Shown: positions 49,729-59,731 of the stretch, piece by piece
Layout of the letters: every line of letters starts with the position of its first letter
How positions within the stretch are numbered: position 1 is the first letter of the stretch
From: Candidatus Thalassarchaeaceae archaeon
Lineage (GTDB): Archaea > Thermoplasmatota > Poseidoniia > Poseidoniales > Thalassarchaeaceae
Length of the DNA: 64,000 nt
Direction of reading: 5' to 3'
Assembly (NCBI GenBank): GCA_943841885.1
Contig: CALSZZ010000005.1
Location: forward strand, 63,766-127,765
The notes under the pieces: generated by a model
The model's input: the letters and a program-made list of their open reading frames with translations, nothing else
Told to the model about the DNA's origin: nothing
The model's database searches: none
Made by a program: the position numbers and the translations under genes

Positions 49729-50472
49729 GTGGATCTGAAGAGATATGTCAAAACAATTCAGTTGACATTTGTTGCTTCTGGCGTGATTGTTGAAACGAAC
49801 CATCAAAGATCGGCCCCTGCAGATGGATTAGAATGGACTTTGACTGCTGATTTACCAAATGATAAAGAATACTTGAATTGGTCCCTTGTCGATTCAGGAA
49901 TGCAAAAAGAAGATTGGAATTGGAGTGCCACAGGTCAAATTACAATAGACGGAAATACCATAAGTATTTTTGGAAGTCCGGGATCAAGAGTTTCTGGGAC
50001 TATTAATTTACAATTACCCGACGATGCACCGCCTAAATTTCATCAATTTGAACATGAAGATGATTCTAATGAGTATAATATGAAATTTTCCCTTGAAGTT
50101 CTTCAAATTCATAGAGCTAGTTTGGCAATAATATCGCCTACGGAAACACCAATATCTGTAGAAATTGATGAAGAATCAGTAGTTATATTGAGACTTGAAA
50201 ATTTAGGAAATGGAGTTGATTCTTACTATTTATCGCATAAATTAATGTTGAATGATAACATAACTTCTGATCCTGGTATTTTAATTACATTCTCCAATAA
50301 TCCTATCTCGTTAGGGGCAGGTAGCCTAAGAACAATACCGATTACAATAATAATACCTGAATCAACGCCTGCAAGAGTAGATTTAGAAATTGAATTGACC
50401 ATTGAGTTCAATAGGAAATACAGATGTGAAAGATTCCAAAAATATAATAATTCAGGCAAAACAAGACCATGA
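49729..50472 (+). CDS. fragment 6: beta-sandwich modules
   Basis: GTG-started ORF. Contains LRLENLGNGVDSYY and the IPESTPARVDLEIELT pattern. Confidence 0.45.
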   Translation: MDLKRYVKTIQLTFVASGVIVETNHQRSAPADGLEWTLTADLPNDKEYLNWSLVDSGMQKEDWNWSATGQITIDGNTISIFGSPGSRVSGTINLQLPDDAPPKFHQFEHEDDSNEYNMKFSLEVLQIHRASLAIISPTETPISVEIDEESVVILRLENLGNGVDSYYLSHKLMLNDNITSDPGILITFSNNPISLGAGSLRTIPITIIIPESTPARVDLEIELTIEFNRKYRCERFQKYNNSGKTRP

Positions 50473-50680
50473 GTGGGAAATTAATGCATTTGTCGACGGA
50501 GTCGACTTAAAGCAAGAGACGTATAATATATCTACAAGTGAAATATTAGAAATTAATGTTTTTGCGACAAATATAGGAAATATGATTGATGATTTATCAC
50601 TAGAAACCTCGATAGAAATAGAATTACACCCTGACGACCTTTCATCTGGATGGTCAGCAATTGGAGATTCAGTAAAATAA
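50402..50680 (+). CDS. fragment 7
   Basis: VFATNIGNMIDDLSL module. Ends at an A-rich run (gtaaaataa). Confidence 0.4.
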   Translation: MSSIGNTDVKDSKNIIIQAKQDHEWEINAFVDGVDLKQETYNISTSEILEINVFATNIGNMIDDLSLETSIEIELHPDDLSSGWSAIGDSVK

Positions 50681-50705
50681 TGTTGAAATTAATGAAACTG
50701 CTGTA

Positions 50706-50933
50706 TTGAATGTTAACTCTACAGTACCCGAAGGAGCATTAGTAGGATCTAAAATGGTTGTAACAGTATTTGTAATTGCGCTAGAGGAGGAAGTAATGAG
50801 ATTTGTTTATGAAGTTGGAGTAGTTCATCAACCTGGATGGAAATTATTTGCTGGAGAGGCCAACTTAGAAATTGATAATAATGGATCAGAAATTGAATTG
50901 ACAGTTTTTCAAAACGGTAATTTGGAAAACTAA
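50706..50933 (+). CDS. fragment 8
   Basis: The frame is open from 50676 (NNVEINETAVLNVNSTVPEGA...). Ends at ggaaaactaa. Confidence 0.4.
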   Translation: MNVNSTVPEGALVGSKMVVTVFVIALEEEVMRFVYEVGVVHQPGWKLFAGEANLEIDNNGSEIELTVFQNGNLEN

Positions 50934-50994
50934 GCCATATGTATCCGTATGGATCGTTGGTGAAAATGGATGGAGCATCGAATTATCTGAAGAA

Positions 50995-52653
50995 ATGCCA
51001 ATGATTAAACCAGGAAATAGTGCTCCCCTTTCACTCAATATAACGCCATCTCAAAACTCTCAATATGGTAACCCTGTAGAGCTTCACGTCAGAATTAGAG
51101 AAGGAGATGCAAGTGCCGTAACCGAAGTGACACTTCCACTTAGAGTAGCAAAAATAAATGATTTTATGATGTCAAATTATGGAAATTGGGAAATATCAAA
51201 AAATGGAGGAAAATCACTAATCACTCTAGAAAATTTAGGCAATAGCCCTACCACAATTACTTTACAGGTGTTGAGTTTACCTGATGGATGGGTAATAAAT
51301 GGGAAAGATAAGATGGTACTATCTGCTGGTCAAAAAGCAGGCATTCCAATAGATATTGTACCTTCAGAAAATTGGAATGGAGACATTAAGACGATAAGGA
51401 TACTAGCACAAGACCCGGAAGGAAATCAGAGAGAAATACTAATTGAAACTAAGTATGTACAATATTCTTGGTCCAGCTCCCCCGTAATAATTTCTATTGC
51501 TGAAGATTATGCACTCATAAATATTCATGGAGCTTCTAATGGCGATAATGTTATTGATGAAGAAGGAAATAATTTAGATTGGACAGAAAACGGTTGGCTG
51601 TTACCTACAGCGAAAAATGGATTTGGAAATATAACAATTAATCAAAATAATAATCTCATGTACTTGATGGAAATATATCAGCCAATTCTAAGAAATGTTT
51701 CATGCCAAATATCTGGACTTTTTGAAGAAATTAATTCTTCCTGTTCAATAGAATCTGGAAATGAAATTTTTGGTTACACAGTATTATTAATCGACGATAT
51801 GGGCAATGCAATAGACTCGTATTTTGGCACGTCTGGAGTTAATAGCGAATCCATTACCATCAACCTCAGCTCAGATAATTGGGACCCCCTGCCTGGAATG
51901 AGAAAATTAACAATAAAAATATTTGATCAATACGGGAGAGAAATGACAAGTGCTGAAAAAAACTTTGAAATCAGGAAGAGTAATTGGAATATTGGACTGA
52001 CCTCAGTAGATTTATCAGGAACAGGAGATAATCAAATAATTGAGATTACTGCAGAAAGATTTGGGCATGGGCAACTTATTGATGCAGAATGTAAAATTTC
52101 TTTGAGCGGAGGAGATTACGAATCTGTACAAAAAATAGATATGAGCACGAGAGTTATTCTGACACCTAAACCAAAATTTGATAGGCCCTTAGAAATAGAA
52201 GATGGAACTGAAATAAGAATCAAAATTGAATGTCTTTTTCCTTGGGATATTGATTCAAATCCAGCAGATAATGAAATAAGAAAAGTCTTAACAGGAGGAG
52301 AAGTTAGTGAAGAAGGATTTAACACACTAGAAAGTATTATTTCAGCTATTGCAGTGATATTAATTTCATTATCTTTGGCATGGATTAATAAGAACAGAAA
52401 GGAAATGAAAGAATTTGAAGAAATAACTAAGCAAACAATACAACGTAGAGTTAGTGAACAGAAAAATGCTGATAAGAGTATTAAAATAAAAAATGATGAA
52501 ATAACTGAAAATATAAATGAAAATAATAAAAAAGATGATGCATATGTAGATGATTTACCAAATGAAGATATAGAACCAGAAGTGGAAAATAAAGATGAAG
52601 AAGTATTGGATGATTTTGAACGTAGATTGAGACGAATTCGCCGAAATGATTAG
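50995..52653 (+). CDS. fragment 9: C-terminal modules, TM anchor and charged tail
   Basis: The frame is open from about 50932 (KPYVSVWIVGENGW...). Contains LENLGNSPTTI, TM IISAIAVILISLSLAWI and a Lys/Glu-rich tail. Confidence 0.5.
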   Translation: MPMIKPGNSAPLSLNITPSQNSQYGNPVELHVRIREGDASAVTEVTLPLRVAKINDFMMSNYGNWEISKNGGKSLITLENLGNSPTTITLQVLSLPDGWVINGKDKMVLSAGQKAGIPIDIVPSENWNGDIKTIRILAQDPEGNQREILIETKYVQYSWSSSPVIISIAEDYALINIHGASNGDNVIDEEGNNLDWTENGWLLPTAKNGFGNITINQNNNLMYLMEIYQPILRNVSCQISGLFEEINSSCSIESGNEIFGYTVLLIDDMGNAIDSYFGTSGVNSESITINLSSDNWDPLPGMRKLTIKIFDQYGREMTSAEKNFEIRKSNWNIGLTSVDLSGTGDNQIIEITAERFGHGQLIDAECKISLSGGDYESVQKIDMSTRVILTPKPKFDRPLEIEDGTEIRIKIECLFPWDIDSNPADNEIRKVLTGGEVSEEGFNTLESIISAIAVILISLSLAWINKNRKEMKEFEEITKQTIQRRVSEQKNADKSIKIKNDEITENINENNKKDDAYVDDLPNEDIEPEVENKDEEVLDDFERRLRRIRRND

Positions 52654-52678: not shown

Positions 52679-53293
52679 ATGGCAACCAGTGCTTTCTTTA
52701 CATTTGACCCAATGAGAATAGATGCTGAAGAATTGATAGAACCCATCATCAAGAGTATTGGCGGAGAACATGAAGAATTACTGCAACTAATTAATAATGA
52801 AGATTCATTTCCTTCTTTAATAGAAGGTGAGAATGCAAGATTTGATCAAGCAACCATGCTTTTCATATCATCATTAGATTGGAAAGAAGGAAGAGGGATT
52901 CCCGAACAACTATGTAAAAGTAATATCAGAGAAAAGATTGGTAGATTCCCAACCTCAGATGGTAATTCGATAAAATACCTTATACAAAATACGTCCTCTG
53001 ATAACGATATAAACAGATTACATGAACTATTATTCAAATTGATGGATGGTTTATCTGAAAAAAACTTAGGACATTCTGGCTTTCAAGAAGGAGTAGGGGG
53101 CATGGAGCTAATGGGTTGGATAAATCATAAAGAAGTTACTGAATTGATAAAAACCATCAAAAAAGGAGAGTGGGCAATATCTGCAGATGAGATTTTCGAT
53201 GGCGGAGTTCAAGAGATAATTAGGCATTTAATGATGTTGTTATTGACTGCTGAGAGAAGATCATGTGGCATCTTGATGAGACGGCATATCTAA
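52679..53293 (+). CDS. hypothetical cytosolic protein
   Basis: 204-aa ORF with ordinary composition and no recognised motif. Confidence 0.5.
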   Translation: MATSAFFTFDPMRIDAEELIEPIIKSIGGEHEELLQLINNEDSFPSLIEGENARFDQATMLFISSLDWKEGRGIPEQLCKSNIREKIGRFPTSDGNSIKYLIQNTSSDNDINRLHELLFKLMDGLSEKNLGHSGFQEGVGGMELMGWINHKEVTELIKTIKKGEWAISADEIFDGGVQEIIRHLMMLLLTAERRSCGILMRRHI

Positions 53294-53295
53294 AA

Positions 53296-54207
53296 TCAAA
53301 AATCAGTTCCAGTAAGTCTCTCAAACATACTAACATATAATTGAGTGGTTTCTTCAATCACGTGTTTAGGTAATTTTGGGATCGGAGGTTCTTCTAAATT
53401 TTCTTGTCTAGCCTTGTACAAATCTGCATGATGACCAGTGTCAAGATAATGCTGCCTAACAAATTCCTTTGATAATTGTACAATTTCACCATTTTCATAA
53501 GATTCAAGGTCCCACCATCTATCCTCGTCAAGTGTGCCAAATGAATCAACTAATACAGGTACTCTATCTTTACCTAATGCAAATTCTTTCTTCCCATCTA
53601 CATGGATTAATCCTCTTAAAGATGCTTCTCTGTTAATTATTTCATCAATTCTTACAACGATTGATAAAATATCATCAAATTCATTTTCAGATAAATTAGA
53701 AATTGATAATGCTTCTTCTCTATCCAATAAACGATCAAATTTTTCAAACTTTGTTGACACTTCAAGATAAGGATTTGGTAATTTTATTCCTTCGTGTAGT
53801 ATTGTTCCTGGTTCAAAACCAAATTCTTCTGCAGGAGCATCTCCTCTCTCATATCTTCTCCAGCCTGAACCAGCGAGATAATGTCTACAAATAAACTCCA
53901 AAGGCACAAAAACGTTTTCTTTTTCCCTAGAAATTGCCCCTGGTTCTCTAATCACTTCAAATTTACGAGCCAAAATTCTATCAGGTGCATTTACTTCAAT
54001 GACATGTGTTTCACAAATTCCTTCTTTTTCTACAAGATTAAACCAATGAGCAGAAGTACGATTTAGGGATTCACCTTTATTTGGTATTAAACTAGGGATA
54101 ATTTGGTCGAAAACACTAATCTGATTGGTATACCTAAACTCTATGACATCAGATGATTCTGTGCTCCAAACTTCTTTTACCTTACCTTTGTATAATAACT
54201 CGCCCAT
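53296..54207 (-). CDS. purC: phosphoribosylaminoimidazole-succinocarboxamide (SAICAR) synthase
   Basis: LLYKGKVKEVW N-terminal motif, VPLEFICR and IHVDGKKEFALG (DtKfEfG-like) motifs. The start was set at Met18 of the longest ORF (54258). Confidence 0.8.
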   Translation of the reverse strand: MGELLYKGKVKEVWSTESSDVIEFRYTNQISVFDQIIPSLIPNKGESLNRTSAHWFNLVEKEGICETHVIEVNAPDRILARKFEVIREPGAISREKENVFVPLEFICRHYLAGSGWRRYERGDAPAEEFGFEPGTILHEGIKLPNPYLEVSTKFEKFDRLLDREEALSISNLSENEFDDILSIVVRIDEIINREASLRGLIHVDGKKEFALGKDRVPVLVDSFGTLDEDRWWDLESYENGEIVQLSKEFVRQHYLDTGHHADLYKARQENLEEPPIPKLPKHVIEETTQLYVSMFERLTGTDF

Positions 54208-54312
54208 ATGCCTCACAAGAGAAATAGGAACATGAACATTACTGATGATGATACACAATTTTTAAATTTCTTCATACGTGGGTTCTATATTCTATGTACT
54301 AATCGCGGTACA

Positions 54313-56670
54313 GTGAGTATCTTGTTAAGGAGAAATCAAGAAACTCCAGTATCTGGAAAAAAACCTTTGAGGACAAATATAATAATATGCTCAATAATTT
54401 TTATATTGATTAATATTTCTTCGGTGAGTGCACAAACAAGTATAACAAGCGGCTGGGAAATAATAGATACAGATTTTGATGAAGATATATTCAGTATTAT
54501 CTCAACAGAAGGAGATGAATTATGGGGTTTTGGAGAATCGGGGCTTATTATTAACAGTAATGATAATGGAAATAGTTGGATGAAATTAGAAACAATAGTA
54601 GAAGAGGATTTGATATCGTCTGATTACTTGAACGGAGTATTACTGGTCTCTGGAACTAATGGGACAGTGATTCACAAAGTGCAAGAAGAGGGTTGGAATG
54701 AGATAAATATTCCAGATAAAAATATTAATATTGCAGAGGTGGCAATATCCTCTACTGATTCTTATTTCGTAGTTGGGAGCAACGGTTTAATTTGGCATTA
54801 TAATGGTTTAAATTGGGAAAATAAAACTTTTGATAATGAACATAACTATAATTCGATATCCTTTAATGATCAAAATGGATTAGATGGGATAATAGTTGGC
54901 GATGATGGAATTATTCTATCCACTTTGAATGGAGGGGTTAATTGGGAAAGAATAGAAACTCCATCATTTGTTGAAGATAATAATATAGTATCTCTACAAC
55001 TGATTAGTGATTCTCGTGCATATGCAGTTACTGAAGAGGGTTACATATTAGTATCAAGAGGATTGGATACTAACATAGGTTTTGAATGGGAATTAGTCAA
55101 TAATGAGCTTTCTTTGAATATGGATGATGTTGGAGTAAATAATATAGAAGTTGTTAATTCAATAAAAATTATTGTCTCTGGAGAGAATAATTTTATTGCA
55201 ACAAGTAAAAATGGAGGAAATGCATTTGAGAGGCATAATCTATCATTATTAACCCAAGGTGAGAAAATTATCATTCATGACTTAGCGATGATTGATGGTT
55301 TTTGTGGCGTTGCTTCAGGAAGTAATGGTACAATACTAATTACGACATTAGATGAGAATGGATATTGCTCAGAAGGATTAGATCAGTACTTAGGATTTCA
55401 AATAGAAGATTTTAATGATTTTGGACAATTTGTCGGAAAATACTCTGGATGGATGCTTGAAGGACTAATTGCTACTATGAAAATTGTCGTGTTTGGGATA
55501 ATTTTTGGATTTGCGATAGGAATAACTCTTGCTATATTCAAAACCGCACCTACATCTCTCAAAGATATGATAGAAAGCCATCTCGAAAAATTATTATTCA
55601 CTACTTGGTTCATTATTCCAATATCAATAATTATTTCTAAAACTAGTGATAGTAAATTAATTGGTATTTTATCATTCTTTTTTCTATCTATAATATTATT
55701 TATTTTACAAATAATTATTAATAGAAAAGGAGATAATTCAGGAGATAGAGATGGGTTACTAGGAAAAAAAGTTCCAGAACGATTTAGATCTTTAATGATA
55801 CGTTTATTTGGTTTATCACTACTTATCGGGCTACCGATTGGAGAATATGAAATTAGAGGATCATTATTTCTGATAACAGAATCATTGATATCATTTTCTG
55901 AATTAAATTTAGAAGGTATGGAAAATATTTTTGCACCAATAGGAAATACGAGTGCATTTTTGGATTTATTGTTAGGAATAATGGTTTTGATTCCTGGTTG
56001 TATGTTTATACTAAATAATGGTAATTTTAGTGAAATCAAAATTCCTTATTCAAAAAATAATAATATAAAGATTAATCCTTGGAAATTAAGGCCTTTAAAC
56101 TCGATTGCAACCATATACACAGATATCTTCAGGAATACTCCTCTAATTGTACAATTTCTATTTTTACACTTTGGCATCCAAATTGGAAGAATAATAGAAG
56201 AATCTACTTCGGAATTTTTTCTGGAAATACCATTATTAGCAGATTTTTTTAGTGATAGAATATATTTGAGTGCAATATGTGCCCTCGCATTCAATTCAGG
56301 TGCGTATCAATGCGAAACATTGAGAGGGGCGATAGCTGCAATCCCTTCAGGCCAAATGGAAGCCGGAAGAAGTATTGGCCTGACATATCTACAAACTATG
56401 AAATTAATTATTATCCCACAAGCAATAAGAATATGCATACCCCCTCTAGGAAATGAAATGGTCAACTTGGTACTAAATTCATCTTTAGCAATGGTAATAG
56501 GATATACAGAATTAACAAGACAGGGGAAATTAATTAATGCCATTACATTCCAAATAACCTGGACATGGGGCATGGTAATGATATCATATTTTGTAGTAAC
56601 TTGGACTTTGGCCCTTATTCTAAGAAGAATTGAGGCGAAAACAAGAATCCCAGGGTTAGGTATTTTATGA
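54313..56670 (+). CDS. fusion protein: signal anchor + BNR/Ycf48-like beta-propeller + polar-amino-acid ABC transporter permease (HisM/GlnP family) with extra TM insertion
   Basis: Asp-box-like repeats (SNDNGNSW, STLNGGVNW, TSKNGGNAF) recur at regular spacing. The permease signatures are YTDIFRNTPLIVQFLFLHFG and the EAA loop MEAGRSIGLTYLQTMKLIIIPQAIRICIPPLGNE. A GTG at 54313 gives a plausible signal anchor. The ORF is open from 54208, which would abut the purC start. Confidence 0.7.
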   Translation: MSILLRRNQETPVSGKKPLRTNIIICSIIFILINISSVSAQTSITSGWEIIDTDFDEDIFSIISTEGDELWGFGESGLIINSNDNGNSWMKLETIVEEDLISSDYLNGVLLVSGTNGTVIHKVQEEGWNEINIPDKNINIAEVAISSTDSYFVVGSNGLIWHYNGLNWENKTFDNEHNYNSISFNDQNGLDGIIVGDDGIILSTLNGGVNWERIETPSFVEDNNIVSLQLISDSRAYAVTEEGYILVSRGLDTNIGFEWELVNNELSLNMDDVGVNNIEVVNSIKIIVSGENNFIATSKNGGNAFERHNLSLLTQGEKIIIHDLAMIDGFCGVASGSNGTILITTLDENGYCSEGLDQYLGFQIEDFNDFGQFVGKYSGWMLEGLIATMKIVVFGIIFGFAIGITLAIFKTAPTSLKDMIESHLEKLLFTTWFIIPISIIISKTSDSKLIGILSFFFLSIILFILQIIINRKGDNSGDRDGLLGKKVPERFRSLMIRLFGLSLLIGLPIGEYEIRGSLFLITESLISFSELNLEGMENIFAPIGNTSAFLDLLLGIMVLIPGCMFILNNGNFSEIKIPYSKNNNIKINPWKLRPLNSIATIYTDIFRNTPLIVQFLFLHFGIQIGRIIEESTSEFFLEIPLLADFFSDRIYLSAICALAFNSGAYQCETLRGAIAAIPSGQMEAGRSIGLTYLQTMKLIIIPQAIRICIPPLGNEMVNLVLNSSLAMVIGYTELTRQGKLINAITFQITWTWGMVMISYFVVTWTLALILRRIEAKTRIPGLGIL

Positions 56671-56680
56671 GGCGATAAAT

Positions 56681-57415
56681 TTGAATGATGAAATATTAAA
56701 TGTTAAAAATTTACATAAAATATATCCTGGCGGAGTACATGCTGTAAGAGGAATTTCTTTTAAAGTTCATAAAGGCGAATCGGTGGCGATAATAGGATCT
56801 TCTGGAAGTGGTAAATCAACTGTTCTTAGATGCATTAATAGGCTGATTGAACCAACAAGTGGTGATGTAATACTAAAAGGAAAGAAAATAAATACTCCTT
56901 CTGCAGATATTAATGAAATTAGATCAAGAATCGGAATGGTATTTCAGTCATTTGAATTGTTTGCACACCTAAGAGTGATACAGAATATTTCTCTTGGATT
57001 AATTCACGTCAGAGGAATGAAAAATGATGATGCAGAAAAGTTGGCACTTGAAGTCTTAGAAAAAGTCGATATGTTGGATAGAAAGGATGCATATCCTGGT
57101 AACCTATCGGGAGGTCAGAAACAAAGAGTAGCAATTGCTAGGGCTTTGGCCATGAAACCAGAAATACTTCTATTTGACGAGCCAACAAGTGCTCTAGATC
57201 CCGAATTAATAGGATCTGTATTAGAAAATATTCGCTCTCTAGCAGATGAGGGCATGACTATGATAATTGTAACCCATGAGATTGGATTTGCCAGAGATGT
57301 TGCTGATAGGGTAATATACATGGATCAAGGAATCGTTGCAGAGGAAGGGAAGTCATCTATAATCGATAGTCCTGAAACTGAGAGGATGCAAAAATTCCTA
57401 TCTACTTGGGACTAA
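56681..57415 (+). CDS. polar amino acid ABC transporter ATP-binding protein (GlnQ/HisP family)
   Basis: Walker A GSSGSGKST, Q-loop, signature LSGGQKQRVAIARAL, Walker B ILLFDEPTSALD and H-loop. TTG start 10 nt after the permease stop. Confidence 0.9.
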   Translation: MNDEILNVKNLHKIYPGGVHAVRGISFKVHKGESVAIIGSSGSGKSTVLRCINRLIEPTSGDVILKGKKINTPSADINEIRSRIGMVFQSFELFAHLRVIQNISLGLIHVRGMKNDDAEKLALEVLEKVDMLDRKDAYPGNLSGGQKQRVAIARALAMKPEILLFDEPTSALDPELIGSVLENIRSLADEGMTMIIVTHEIGFARDVADRVIYMDQGIVAEEGKSSIIDSPETERMQKFLSTWD

Positions 57416-58741
57416 TCAGCAACTTTCGGTAGCTGTCCAAGTTTCTTGAGTCCCACCGCCACCTTGCTGCGGCCCGTTGTCTTTGACTTCCTCTTCTGCA
57501 TAGATGTAGTAAGATGTATGAGAAATTATCTCATTAGTATCTGACCATGGTTCTGATTGAGTCACATCTACTGTAAAATAATAACACCCGAAATCCGCTT
57601 CTTCCCATTGATCTTTAGGAATATACTTGAATCCTCCTAAACCGGGGTCAATGACAGACCCTTCGAGAGGTAATTCAGCGCCCACAGTACCTATGTCATA
57701 TTGTCCAGAACCATAATCTCCCGAGTTAGAATCCCAAGTAGCGATTGCTTTGTCCACATAAACATCTGGATAATCTATTGCTATATTCCCGGTTTCATAA
57801 TATAATGTTGCTGAAAGATTGTATTCAGCCATAGGAAGACTACCTGGCCGATCATTGGAATTTAATCCTGCCCAAGCAGTAAGAGATACGCCGATTACAC
57901 AATCATTAGTAGAACCACAATTGTCATCACTATCGCTTAAAACAGCAGATACTAATGATTGTACATCGTTAATGGTCCTAGATAAATAATTACCATCCAG
58001 TACGGTAGACATGACATTATCATCTACTGTTATACTGAGTAAATAATCCGTATCAGGTAAAGAGTTACCTGTGTAGATATCTGCAATTTTAATATTTAAT
58101 TTTCCATAATCTCCTAGGCCGTCGCTTTTATCAATTTTTAACGACATTGACTGGGCCCAAGGGCCAACCTCAACAAGAGCATTGACTGAAGATGAAGATC
58201 CTCCATTTTGCCTAATTTTTATCTCTAGTTCGGTCCCATCATCGCTCATCTCAACCTCTCCTAATGACATATCACCAATAAATAAAGTTCCTAGAATAAC
58301 AGGTAATAATAACATAGATAAGTAAGAAAATGCAACAATTATTGCTGGTACGACAGAAACTCCGGTTCCAACAATCCCTCCAACTTTAATTTTGGCCGGT
58401 AGACCGATACCAAGATAAATCCAGACTCCGATTAAAGAAGCCGAGGTAACTAATGGAGTAACTAGTGTAATAGGAACTACATCTGGTATCAGATAGACTC
58501 CAAACCACATCATCACAACGGTAGGCAGTAAGCCTCCAATACCAAGAGCCAAGAATATTTTTTTTAATGAAATATCTTTTGAATTGGATTTATCGTCTTT
58601 TGAAACTACTGCAATGGGAATAACTGGTATGTCCTCGTTATTGTGTTGTGATTCTTGTTGTTCCATTGCTTTCTGAAGAAGTCCACCATTACTCATTTGA
58701 TATGCCTCGTAATCTACCTCAGGCCACCAACTAGTTATCAA
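57416..58741 (-). CDS. membrane protein with large extracytoplasmic C-terminal domain (hypothetical)
   Basis: 441 aa with about 4 N-terminal TM helices, then a Ser/Asp/Gly-rich domain ending in Cys. Confidence 0.55.
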   Translation of the reverse strand: MITSWWPEVDYEAYQMSNGGLLQKAMEQQESQHNNEDIPVIPIAVVSKDDKSNSKDISLKKIFLALGIGGLLPTVVMMWFGVYLIPDVVPITLVTPLVTSASLIGVWIYLGIGLPAKIKVGGIVGTGVSVVPAIIVAFSYLSMLLLPVILGTLFIGDMSLGEVEMSDDGTELEIKIRQNGGSSSSVNALVEVGPWAQSMSLKIDKSDGLGDYGKLNIKIADIYTGNSLPDTDYLLSITVDDNVMSTVLDGNYLSRTINDVQSLVSAVLSDSDDNCGSTNDCVIGVSLTAWAGLNSNDRPGSLPMAEYNLSATLYYETGNIAIDYPDVYVDKAIATWDSNSGDYGSGQYDIGTVGAELPLEGSVIDPGLGGFKYIPKDQWEEADFGCYYFTVDVTQSEPWSDTNEIISHTSYYIYAEEEVKDNGPQQGGGGTQETWTATESC

Positions 58742-58786
58742 CCCGTTGCCAAATTAGGTCAATAAAATATTGAATTACTAACACAT

Positions 58787-59731
58787 TCAGAATATCCGTG
58801 AGTCGAGAGGAATTAGTTCTTTATCTCGATCATCATTATGTCTAATTTGGTTCTGATTTGCTCTGCCAGCTAAAGCTACTGCCGCAAAGGCTGTAATCAT
58901 CATAGTACCGGCTATTTCAAAACCTGGGAGATAAATTCCTCTAATATATACAGTCATTGATTGAATTTGGTAATTAGGTATTCCTTCAGTCCTTATTGAA
59001 AATTCTGAAGTTGCTTTAAATTGTAAATTATAATACTTATCGGTCCATCCTTGATTCTTTGGAGTACGCATTTGGACTCTAAACTTAGTAGGAGGTGCTA
59101 AAGAATCTATTTCATCAGTTAGGAGAGGAATACTTAGTTGGAAACCTGCATCGTTTAATTCATCAAAATTTGAAACTTCAACGTTAAACTTATCTCTTGC
59201 ATTACCGTCATTATATACGTCGAATTGGAGCATATAGTCAACCTTCGGCCTAAGTTGCAAGAATGCTAACTCTGAACCTACTCTAAGTCTACTGAATTGT
59301 TTGTATACTGCTAATACTTTACTCTCCACAGGTTCAGATACTCCACTTACCGGTCCTCCGCCCCATGTTATCACTTCTGCTTCAATAGTTACAACTTGTT
59401 GCCCCTCAGGGGCTCTTAATTCTGCCCTAAGAGCAACTTCAAAACTTGCACTACCTTGACCTGATACTGATTTAGAACCAGGTCCTGCAACACCTAAAAC
59501 TCCTCCAGAATAGGTTAACTTTACAGTTTCAGAAAATGCTGTCGGATTTGATAGTGTACAATATACTATACTTGTCCTTGTTGATCCGGGAAAAACATCA
59601 ATTGCATTAGGTTGTTGACAATCTAATGAAATCTCCGGAGATGTTTGGGCTTGTACCATAGCAACACCTGTCCATGTGCTAATGAAATAGACACCAATTA
59701 ACATCAAGGCTGTTCTAAATGAAGAACTCAT
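58787..59731 (-). CDS. secreted beta-sandwich protein with PGF-like C-terminal anchor (hypothetical)
   Basis: Signal peptide (ALMLIGVYFISTWTGVAMVQA), NxGN-type module (VYNDGNARDKFNV), and a C-terminal LPGFEIAGTMMITAFAAVALAGR TM plus 24-aa tail. TATA-like GTATAAAATAAG lies about 30 nt upstream. Confidence 0.6.
   Translation of the reverse strand: MSSSFRTALMLIGVYFISTWTGVAMVQAQTSPEISLDCQQPNAIDVFPGSTRTSIVYCTLSNPTAFSETVKLTYSGGVLGVAGPGSKSVSGQGSASFEVALRAELRAPEGQQVVTIEAEVITWGGGPVSGVSEPVESKVLAVYKQFSRLRVGSELAFLQLRPKVDYMLQFDVYNDGNARDKFNVEVSNFDELNDAGFQLSIPLLTDEIDSLAPPTKFRVQMRTPKNQGWTDKYYNLQFKATSEFSIRTEGIPNYQIQSMTVYIRGIYLPGFEIAGTMMITAFAAVALAGRANQNQIRHNDDRDKELIPLDSRIF

Follow-up and report, generated by a model that had tools for sequence, protein, structure and literature searches.

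In the GlnPQ importer of Lactococcus lactis, the permease carries two binding domains fused at its N-terminal end, whereas the Art(QN)2-ArtI system of Thermoanaerobacter tengcongensis combines its permease with a separate substrate-binding protein (SBP) of the SBP_bac_3 family. In the maltose importer of Escherichia coli, the P2 loop of MalF works with the binding protein. We know of no beta-propeller that acts as the receptor of any ABC importer. Likewise, non-photosynthetic Ycf48-like propellers are very widespread and, to our knowledge, have no known function. Ycf48 itself uses one of its faces to sit on a five-helix membrane protein, at the extracytoplasmic surface, and wraps around the C-terminal tail of that protein; the arginine patch that binds D1 comprises R180, R196, R215, R219, R220 and R237 (PMC10403576).

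Here we analysed a stretch of 64,000 nucleotides (hereafter, the window) from a marine planktonic archaeon of Marine Group IIb, in which a core gene of undescribed design fuses a Ycf48-like propeller to an amino-acid permease. Full-text literature searches returned nothing on the fusion of Ycf48 or a propeller to an ABC permease, nor on this system in Poseidoniales, and the importer is apparently undescribed, though its two domains are already annotated by database pipelines. The findings presented below make it fairly probable that the system is a polar amino-acid importer that depends on a binding protein and carries the propeller as an accessory ectodomain instead of as a receptor, with a domain encoded elsewhere in the genome as its likely partner.

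A single ORF joins a signal peptide, a propeller and a permease

The fusion and the ATPase gene that follows it present these features:

54208..56670, plus strand: maximal ORF of the propeller-permease fusion (ORF listing; homologues begin at the signal peptide, e.g. P0008 starts MNIIICLIIF)
54367..54435, plus strand: signal peptide with basic n-region, hydrophobic core IIICSIIFILINISSV and SAQ cleavage motif (sequence, hydropathy, alignment)
54445..55347, plus strand: seven-bladed Ycf48-like beta-propeller with Asp-box motifs, residues ~80-380 (Pfam, PDB sequence matches, AlphaFold2, Foldseek)
55348..55548, plus strand: conserved linker (VGFEIxDFNDFGxFV) and first transmembrane helix (TM1) of the permease, residues ~381-447 (alignment, hydropathy, long helix in the model)
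55549..56082, plus strand: insert that separates TM1 from the permease core and varies by lineage, residues ~448-625 (alignment, hydropathy, model)
56083..56667, plus strand: HisM/GlnP/ArtQ-type (HEQRo) permease core (Pfam, NCBIfam, PDB sequence match)
56681..57415, plus strand: GlnQ/HisP-type ABC ATPase, starting 10 nt past the permease stop codon (NCBIfam, Pfam)

An earlier note, made from the sequence, had read signal anchor, propeller and permease in one ORF, and this architecture was recovered by Pfam, NCBIfam and AlphaFold2. The ORF stays open for 820 codons. Since ATG 54208 abuts the start codon of purC, the true start probably lies further downstream, either TTG 54322 or TTG 54367 being the probable one and GTG 54313 a possible one. 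From the two TTG codons, the protein would measure about 767-782 aa and carry a normal signal peptide, in which KKPLR is followed by IIICSIIFILINISSV and SAQ and whose hydropathy peaks at residues 58-76 of the ORF. The only run labelled metatranscriptomic, X20, contained contigs of 4-11 kb carrying genes of both strands and hence gives no guide to transcription or its start.

An assembly error or a frameshift that joined two separate genes has next to no chance of explaining the fusion. Contigs from four independent public runs cover positions 53200-58800 and differ by substitutions only, with zero indels. Besides, more than 460 database clusters present both Pfam domains (propeller and BPD_transp_1) in one protein, and 64 genomes carry the same single ORF.

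The assignment of the permease to the HisM/GlnP type also stood. BPD_transp_1 (PF00528) matched residues 628-806 (E 6.9e-15, 55.7 bits, cut-off 26.4) and the HEQRo signature TIGR01726 reached 46.0 bits (cut-off 42.2), with the insert splitting the first helix from the rest of the signature. The NCBIfam matches were of the GlnP (3.8e-33), cystine, HisM and ArtQ types, and the closest solved chain was ArtQ (4yms_D, E 1.3e-29). FRNTPLIVQF was located at residues 641-650, the EAA loop (EAGRSIGL...PQAIR) at residues 718-741 (56359-56430), and the C-terminal tail KTRIPGLGI was invariant in the alignment. None of the named permease equivalogs (GlnP NF007028, HisM, ArtQ and TcyL) passed, the highest score being 115 bits (cut-off 303); judged by these profiles, the window permease belongs to the family and is orthologous to none of the named permeases. 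The ATPase, already recognised as GlnQ-type, gave 294 bits with the NCBIfam GlnQ model (7.3e-88), which is a family-level match only because the equivalog cut-off is 379, and 6e-38 with Pfam ABC_tran. Its gene was found directly 3′ of the fusion in every relative examined. On the strength of these matches, the fusion and the ATPase are components of a type I polar amino-acid (PAAT/HEQRo, TC 3.A.1.3) importer encoded by a two-gene operon. We infer that two propeller-permease copies would form the channel as a homodimer, because there is a single permease gene and its closest solved relative, ArtQ, is homodimeric; two copies of the GlnQ-like ATPase would power it.

The linker and TM1 contain invariant alignment columns (G390, G396, F397, F405, F408 and G419-K445). 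The insert that follows varies among lineages. In the window it adds four hydrophobic helices, and a conserved loop, LxLxG..IFxP(I/V)G, precedes the last of them; the number of such helices is two to six in other Marine Group IIb genera and zero in the shorter Marine Group III fusions (588-610 aa). Given the signal peptide and a TM1 that runs out-to-in, the propeller would lie outside the cell, where each subunit would expose one, held directly above TM1 by the short, highly conserved linker.

The ectodomain is a seven-bladed Ycf48-like propeller

The propeller had been described as BNR/Ycf48-like, and the Ycf48 part of this description was borne out. PSII_BNR/Ycf48 (PF14870) matched residues 158-344 (E 3.9e-15, 56.3 bits, cut-off 27), a PDB sequence search retrieved the Ycf48 entries 5ojp and 2xbg at 1e-8, and the AlphaFold2 model showed seven blades of four strands each (28 strands) with a pLDDT of 85-90, whose best Foldseek matches were Ycf48 (TM-score 0.70-0.76, E ~1e-13). 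The full-length model had a pTM of 0.47, and the packing of the propeller on the membrane domain is not readable from it. In contrast, no BNR/sialidase Pfam family matched the fusion at E up to 0.01, although the sequence has Asp-box motifs at residues 117-124 (SNDNGNSW), 238-246 (STLNGGVNW) and 332-340 (TSKNGGNAF), and the F510_1955 glycosylhydrolase model gave 28.8 bits against a cut-off of 175. The window protein gave no match to the ten-bladed Sortilin/Vps10 family either (PF15902, cut-off 33 bits). PF25852 is listed for some homologues in a precomputed table; our Pfam search did not reproduce it.

The propeller is not Ycf48 proper, the photosystem II assembly factor. It gave 64 bits with the Ycf48 equivalog NF010237 (cut-off 326), and the six-arginine patch has no counterpart: the R of VSSRGS in 2XBG is aligned with E, and only two arginine columns reach 80% in the family, one of them being Ile in the window. 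The residues that are conserved in the family alignment are mostly structural (Gly, Trp and Asp-box), and no obvious ligand-pocket signature was seen in it.

The propeller may hold something other than a binding domain, namely peptides or protein tails, an extracellular peptidase or the S-layer, and in this way couple proteolysis or surface anchoring to uptake. The way in which Ycf48 docks on a membrane protein and wraps the C-terminal tail of D1 (PMC10403576) fits this possibility, as do a sub-threshold similarity to Sortilin-Vps10 in the Marine Group III fusions (18-25 bits) and the peptidase genes near some loci (S8 in L016, M28 in L018 and M60-like in L011 and L012). However, the arginine patch through which Ycf48 binds is not conserved, with 4 Arg in the 306 aa of the window propeller, the peptidase neighbours vary by locus, and no partner was found. 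We consider such a target unlikely; it would be compatible with a transport step that depends on a binding protein.

The fusion coexists with an adjacent binding protein in relatives

A survey of relatives showed that the same fusion recurs. It was present in 64 out of 121 genomes of the family, distributed in six genera and nearly always in a single copy, and within these six Marine Group IIb genera the importer was found in nearly every sampled genome; Marine Group III also carries it. Two sets of apparent relatives were set aside. The propeller matches of f15/g69, another family of the phylum, resembled short fusions and were weak; the protein inspected among them (G120, 534 aa) lacks a permease and is a surface protein that combines a propeller with Ig-like parts. 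The Bipolaricaulota loci, which a pattern scan returned as the nearest bacterial permease relatives, are ordinary systems with two permease genes, without a fused domain in L034.

In the window, the ORF listing and the Pfam matches of the neighbours revealed no binding-protein gene adjoining the fusion and the ATPase, as previously noticed. The gene on one side is purC (minus strand, 53296-54207) and that on the other is an unannotated minus-strand gene (57416-58741). Relatives differ in this respect. In Marine Group III, a divergent SBP_bac_3 gene encoding a C-terminal TM anchor adjoins the fusion at every locus with upstream sequence (3 out of 3 metagenome contigs and 8 out of 8 genome loci, and also L102/L103). 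Sixteen Marine Group IIb genomes, about a quarter of those with the fusion, have a diverged SBP-like gene between purC and the fusion (PF00497, 30 bits, cut-off 26.4), which comprises all sampled fusion-bearing g7 genomes and some of those of g4 and g113. This copy is degenerate, and its TEER motif has lost the canonical Arg. In Marine Group III, a canonical SBP gene stands next to the fusion, and the fusion predates the loss of the adjacent SBP gene.

These observations bear on the proposal, made in the earlier note, that the propeller replaces the SBP as the receptor. An adjacent SBP gene is missing from the window and from most Marine Group IIb genera, the propeller is N-terminal and extracellular like the binding domains of GlnPQ-type fusions, and the retention of an SBP-like gene without the TEER arginine suggests a relaxed dependence on that protein. 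The propeller could thus have become the substrate receptor once the adjacent gene was lost, or the importer could work without a binding protein. Nevertheless, at the family level this transporter does have a canonical SBP gene beside it, in Marine Group III, where it accompanies a fusion that predates the loss. Moreover, the conserved propeller residues are mostly structural, without an obvious pocket signature, and a beta-propeller receptor would have no precedent that we know of among ABC importers. Together with the homologue kept by the window genome, described below, this leaves the replacement unsupported, and we regard a receptor propeller or a transport step without a binding protein as quite improbable.

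A candidate binding partner lies elsewhere in the genome

Screening the rest of the genome for SBP genes yielded a candidate domain and an orphan protein. In the window genome, the SBP that partners the fusion in Marine Group III has a single homologue, the N-terminal domain of a lipoprotein of 1,067 aa (G000:C1:5780-9043; hereafter, the C1 lipoprotein), which consists of SBP_bac_3 (75 bits) followed by two Peripla_BP_6 (LivJ-type) domains. This N-terminal domain is circularly permuted, shares 41-47% identity with the Marine Group III SBP over both halves and keeps the TEER..F..YY and GDxP motifs. Such motifs typically bind the amino-acid backbone. A reverse search against 5.8 billion proteins identified SBPs of 318-323 aa as its closest complete stand-alone relatives; P0424, the one of these whose locus was inspected, and P0267 are both beside propeller-permease genes. 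The predicted structure of the domain had a pLDDT of 68 and, because of the circular permutation, a Foldseek TM-score of only ~0.3, but all top matches were amino-acid-binding proteins, the first being a glutamate-binding protein. This model supports the family assignment and is not proof of a complete closed fold.

The C1-type N-terminal domain and the fusion also go together across genomes. The domain was found in 65 out of 121 genomes, 60 of which have the fusion; in G228 and G272, both less than 90% complete, the three-domain lipoprotein was present and the fusion was not detected. The LivJ lipoproteins of genera without the fusion lack the N-terminal domain, with ~395 aa and one LivJ domain in g5 and ~785 aa and two LivJ domains in g114. 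This homology and co-distribution make the C1 domain the most likely binding partner of the importer, and a motif-intact SBP homologue that tracks the fusion further argues against a receptor role for the propeller. The co-distribution may, however, reflect one event of shared ancestry in one clade. The C1 lipoprotein gene is located in a Liv (branched-chain type) transporter operon, and its N-terminal domain might serve the Liv system instead.

The orphan is an AapJ-like lipoprotein with a coiled-coil stalk of ~190 aa (G000:C4:233014-234657). It is a complete SBP_bac_3-class protein without transporter genes alongside, and a stalk of this length could reach over a bulky ectodomain. That this protein serves the importer, or that the importer shares the AapJ of the AapQMP system, is nonetheless highly improbable. 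The long-stalk form is confined to g1 and g9 and absent from the other four fusion-bearing genera, the protein and the AapJ adjoining AapQMP on C2 are close paralogues (57% identity), and genera that lack the fusion (g5, g114 and g115) have AapJ-type genes too. Conversely, G207 and G211, which are fairly complete, have the fusion and no AapJ-type match. AapQ and AapM, whose own AapJ gene is beside them, are the only other HEQRo permeases in the window genome.

Discussion

Few heterotrophs of the surface ocean are as abundant as Marine Group II archaea, for whose ecology the uptake of amino acids and peptides is central. Relatives pair the propeller-permease fusion with an ordinary SBP and the window genome keeps a copy elsewhere, so the propeller appears to be an add-on and not a replacement receptor. 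In the working scheme that we favour, transport would still proceed through a classical Venus-flytrap binding domain. The ancestral set, kept in Marine Group III, would use the SBP_bac_3 protein that is anchored in the membrane by its C-terminus and encoded divergently next to the fusion. In the window lineage, where the adjacent gene is gone, the lipid-anchored three-domain C1 protein would supply the binding domain. The preferred role of the propeller is perhaps that of a platform that docks and positions the tethered binding domain at the mouth of the translocator, by analogy with the P2 loop of MalF. An alpha-amino acid is the probable substrate, possibly one of the glutamate type, since Marine Group III and several Marine Group IIb genera have a glutamate dehydrogenase gene near the fusion and a glutamate-binding protein was the top structural match of the C1 domain.

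Under this scheme, non-photosynthetic Ycf48-like propellers would gain their first functional context, here as a covalent part of an amino-acid importer whose transport also relies on a tethered binding protein. If confirmed, the C1 lipoprotein would carry the binding domains of two ABC systems on one polypeptide, which is unusual. A joint proposal goes further and is, in our opinion, rather unlikely while still worth stating. According to it, the propeller would be an obligatory dock and one three-domain lipoprotein would feed two importers, its SBP_bac_3 domain the propeller importer and its LivJ-type domains the Liv system; in a bolder form, the propeller would capture amino acids or peptide ends where the adjacent SBP was lost. 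If true, that capture would represent the first receptor of a type I ABC importer not to be a Venus-flytrap domain.

Compared with known systems, the window propeller shares with Ycf48/HCF136 (PDB 2XBG, 5OJ3, 5OJP and 8AM5) the seven-bladed fold, the Pfam family and the extracytoplasmic face of the membrane. Whereas Ycf48 is a free lipoprotein that serves the photosystem, the window propeller is covalently fused to a transporter, has no photosystem context and is not an orthologue. The likeness to the MalF P2 loop of MalFGK2-E is one of function only: in both cases, an accessory extracytoplasmic domain would stand alongside the binding protein without replacing it, but the folds are unrelated, the P2 domain interrupts a loop where the propeller is N-terminal, and MalF is from another transporter family. 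Art(QN)2-ArtI (PDB 4YMS-4YMW) provides the closest solved subunit and, with its separate SBP_bac_3 protein, resembles the Marine Group III gene set; ArtQ is a five-helix homodimeric permease with neither ectodomain nor TM insert, and the window fusion has both additions. With GlnPQ, the importer has in common a single permease gene and a GlnQ-type ATPase gene, a signal peptide, an N-terminal extracytoplasmic domain on an HEQRo membrane domain and an implied homodimer. It departs from the GlnPQ/OpuA type with a fused Venus-flytrap domain in that the propeller is the only extracytoplasmic domain of the fusion (no SBP family matched the protein at E up to 0.01), in the insert of two to six helices after TM1 and, as we propose, in a binding domain provided by a separate, tethered protein.

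A propeller-permease fusion followed by an ATPase gene

The earlier note had described a permease fused to a Ycf48-like propeller in one three-part ORF, with a GlnQ-type ATPase gene after it. ORF reading recovered both genes.

54208-56670, plus strand: propeller-permease ORF, 820 open codons
56681-57415, plus strand: downstream ATPase ORF, 244 codons, GlnQ/HisP-like

All the quoted motifs were found, and the single ORF carried PSII_BNR (Ycf48 family; residues 158-344, E 3.9e-15) and BPD_transp_1 (residues 628-806) in Pfam. Using NCBIfam, the last 190 residues grouped with GlnP, cystine, HisM and ArtQ-type permeases, the HEQRo signature TIGR01726 exceeded its cut-off, and the ATPase gave a GlnQ/HisP-like match with E 7e-88. 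The closest PDB sequence to the permease was ArtQ of Art(QN)2 (4YMS, E 1.3e-29). The upstream neighbour is the minus-strand purC, whose start codon at about 54207 abuts the ATG at 54208. Since GTG 54313, TTG 54322 and TTG 54367 stand in frame ahead of a normal signal peptide, and homologues begin there in the alignment, the predicted product is closer to 770-780 aa.

The window corresponds to positions 63766-127765 of contig C5 in G000, the studied genome, whose assembly measures 1.49 Mb and is 80% complete. Over 20 public marine runs, drawn from more than ten studies, contain the window stretch near-verbatim, and contigs from four of these runs spanned 53200-58800 with substitutions only. A protein search for the fusion returned more than 460 clusters. 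These indel-free contigs and the number of clusters exclude an assembly or frameshift artefact, confirming that the fusion is real. G+C content is about 33%, even along the whole gene. Among the matches listed, 120 of 120 had PF14870 together with PF00528 in a single chain (570-940 aa). Homologues were labelled Euryarchaeota, Thalassarchaeum or Thermoplasmatota, and their pipeline annotation includes "YCF48-related protein". Both domains are already displayed by annotation pipelines; our literature searches found no description of a propeller-permease fusion.

The propeller part was present in 64 of the 121 sampled genomes of the window's family (Marine Group IIb), comprising nearly all members of six genera and nearly always as one copy. 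No member of the other seven genera in this sample yielded it. In the phylum sample it was absent from the sister family and rare elsewhere. All Marine Group IIb loci inspected had an operon of fusion and ATPase, flanked on one side by purC and on the other by glutamate dehydrogenase and an HD protein or, as in the window, by two unannotated secreted proteins. The latter pair lies beyond the ATPase gene on the minus strand (57416-58741 and 58787-59731); it encodes secreted or membrane proteins without a Pfam match and recurs with a CD36-like gene in two relatives (L011, L012); the glutamate dehydrogenase and HD-domain genes hold its place in other genera. Upstream of purC, an FG-GAP/CARDB giant surface-protein gene (49729-52653, plus strand) is broken into several ORFs, the same position in relatives (L005, L007, L011 and L012) being occupied by a single gene of 1,854-1,895 aa.

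Structure and kinship of the propeller

In an AlphaFold2 model built with 66 homologues, the propeller showed 28 strands in seven four-stranded blades (pLDDT 85-90); the membrane part was less confident, and with an overall pTM of 0.47 the domain arrangement is unreadable. Ycf48 ranked first when the propeller was compared with the PDB using Foldseek (5OJ3, 5OJP, 5OJ5, 2XBG, 8AM5; TM-score 0.70-0.76 on target, E about 1e-13), generic WD40 propellers ranking lower, and also appeared in the PDB sequence search (E 1e-8). No sialidase/BNR model of Pfam or NCBIfam was above threshold for the propeller, and it did not reach that of the Sortilin model. Together, profile and fold checks upheld the Ycf48-like assignment. 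Orthology to Ycf48 was rejected, the score of 64 bits falling below the NCBIfam equivalog cut-off of 326. Whereas Ycf48 contacts D1 via six conserved arginines (PMC10403576), the fusion family has just two columns with at least 80% arginine in the 66-sequence alignment, one of which is isoleucine in the window protein. The window propeller contains 4 Arg and 50 Asp/Glu per 306 residues. Conserved polar positions (R270, Y272, T275, S283, E300, E314, K320, S333-N338 and T379) lie in blades 5-7, beside the linker, and this cluster would fit a conserved contact to the membrane domain or to a docked partner.

The last blade runs into permease TM1 through a conserved linker, VGFEIxDFNDFGxFV. TM1 is separated from the FRNTPL segment by an insert, which has four hydrophobic helices in the window protein, two in relatives of 704-712 aa and as many as six in those of 860 aa, with a conserved loop LxLxG..IFxP(I/V)G ahead of its last helix. 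The topology of five-helix HEQRo permeases is known; because an even number of inserted helices keeps it, we infer that the propeller would be outside the cell and the EAA loop in the cytoplasm. At the permease C-terminus (56620-56667), a cytoplasmic tail K-T-R-I-P-G-L-G-I was invariant in all aligned Marine Group IIb homologues; Marine Group III permeases keep it as K-I-P-G-L-G-F, and it was not seen in the closest bacterial permeases.

Binding-protein genes beside related fusions

The earlier note had reported no substrate-binding protein (SBP) gene next to the fusion and had proposed that the propeller may replace the SBP. The first point holds in the window, where purC abuts the fusion; the survey of relatives did not support the second. 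The propeller alone, used as query in an exhaustive HMMER search, returned about 11 clusters with E no higher than 1e-30 and, lower in the list, three proteins of 588-610 aa that matched the entire propeller. In all three, the propeller is joined to a simple five-helix permease that lacks the insert, and their genes lay between a divergent SBP_bac_3 gene and the ATPase gene. When 185,000 species genomes were scanned by pattern, this short form turned up in Marine Group III/Poseidoniia assemblies and a few bins with other labels, and an SBP homologue was located immediately upstream, on the opposite strand, in 8 of the 8 genome loci with upstream sequence. These partner SBPs start with a signal peptide, end in a C-terminal TM anchor and match SBP_bac_3 over a complete domain (91-130 bits). 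Thus, the fusion coexists with a dedicated classical binding protein, and the propeller did not originate as its replacement.

Within Marine Group IIb, a gene of 328-334 aa was found between purC and the fusion in 16 genomes, comprising every sampled g7 genome that carries the fusion and parts of genera g4 and g113. It was always divergent and adjacent to the fusion, and was absent from the window's genus, in which the fusion directly borders purC. Its product has a signal peptide, a C-terminal TM anchor and an SBP_bac_3 match of 30.1 bits (Pfam threshold, 26.4), shares just 25% identity with the Marine Group III partner, and carries a valine where the canonical TEER arginine aligns. This SBP-like gene (L013:5068-6054 in G161, and orthologues) may encode a degenerate or repurposed binding protein.

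Candidate binding partners in the window genome

SBP_bac_3 matches were obtained at three loci of G000.

G000:C2:261697-267276: AapJ-QMP-type operon
G000:C4:233014-234657, minus strand: orphan AapJ paralogue, lipoprotein
G000:C1:5780-9043, plus strand: three-domain lipoprotein (1,067 aa, lipobox AGC), SBP_bac_3 and two Peripla_BP_6/LivJ-type domains

Owing to a TGA codon and a shift of frame, the AapJ gene of the C2 operon lacks an intact reading frame in this assembly. The operon, just downstream of an ORF-free region resembling an rRNA gene, has two unusually long permeases, their open frames spanning 604 and about 578 aa. AapQ and AapM are the only other HEQRo-type permeases in G000. The C4 paralogue carries a coiled-coil stalk of about 190 aa with heptad-like repeats (NQDLNTENQDLNEENQDL...) between lipobox and binding domain. 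It is a poor candidate, since the long-stalk form was restricted to g1 and g9, two of the six fusion-bearing genera, and AapJ-type genes are also present in genera without the fusion.

The C1 lipoprotein gene precedes genes for a 1,316-aa fused LivHM-like permease and two Liv-type ATPases. Its N-terminal SBP_bac_3 domain (75 bits) is circularly permuted, retains the TITEERDATIDFTTAYY and GDAPVL motifs conserved among orthologues, and is the sole G000 homologue of the Marine Group III partner SBP, with 41-47% identity over both halves. A reverse search of a 5.8-billion-protein collection returned mostly fragments of the same lipoprotein as top matches; the closest complete stand-alone relatives were SBPs of 318-323 aa (41-44% identity, including P0267). 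P0424, the one examined in its gene context, is encoded divergently beside a 606-aa propeller-permease and its ATPase. In the related stand-alone SBPs of Marine Group III, the permutation falls at two or more other points (P0267 versus P0268), a pattern that suggests duplication and truncation of tandem domains.

The C1-type domain was present in 65 of the 121 family genomes, 60 of which carry the fusion. Among the exceptions, G246 has a truncated fusion, while G290 and G300 belong to the window's genus and are incomplete. This leaves G228 and G272 (each less than 90% complete), with the domain and no fusion detected, as exceptions. Fusion-free genera keep LivJ-type lipoproteins without SBP_bac_3, of about 395 aa (g5, one LivJ) or 785 aa (g114, two). 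Homology, the reciprocal hits, co-distribution and elimination of other loci together make the C1 N-terminal domain the best candidate partner; the co-distribution could reflect one ancestral event.

Discussion

We propose that the operon would encode a binding-protein-dependent polar amino-acid importer, with a homodimeric membrane domain bearing two external propellers and a binding domain tethered to the membrane through a lipid anchor in the window genome and through a TM anchor in Marine Group III. A weak hint of a glutamate-type substrate comes from the glutamate dehydrogenase gene that recurs near the fusion loci of Marine Groups IIb and III, and from the binding-domain model, whose best structural match was a glutamate-binding protein. 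A live alternative, compatible with docking, is that the propeller holds peptides, a peptidase or the S-layer. The fusion is of moderate interest for transporter mechanism, Marine Group II ecology and the function of non-photosynthetic Ycf48-like propellers. As its preferred role, the propeller would position or dock the tethered binding domain, a role for which the P2 loop of MalF offers an analogue in logic.
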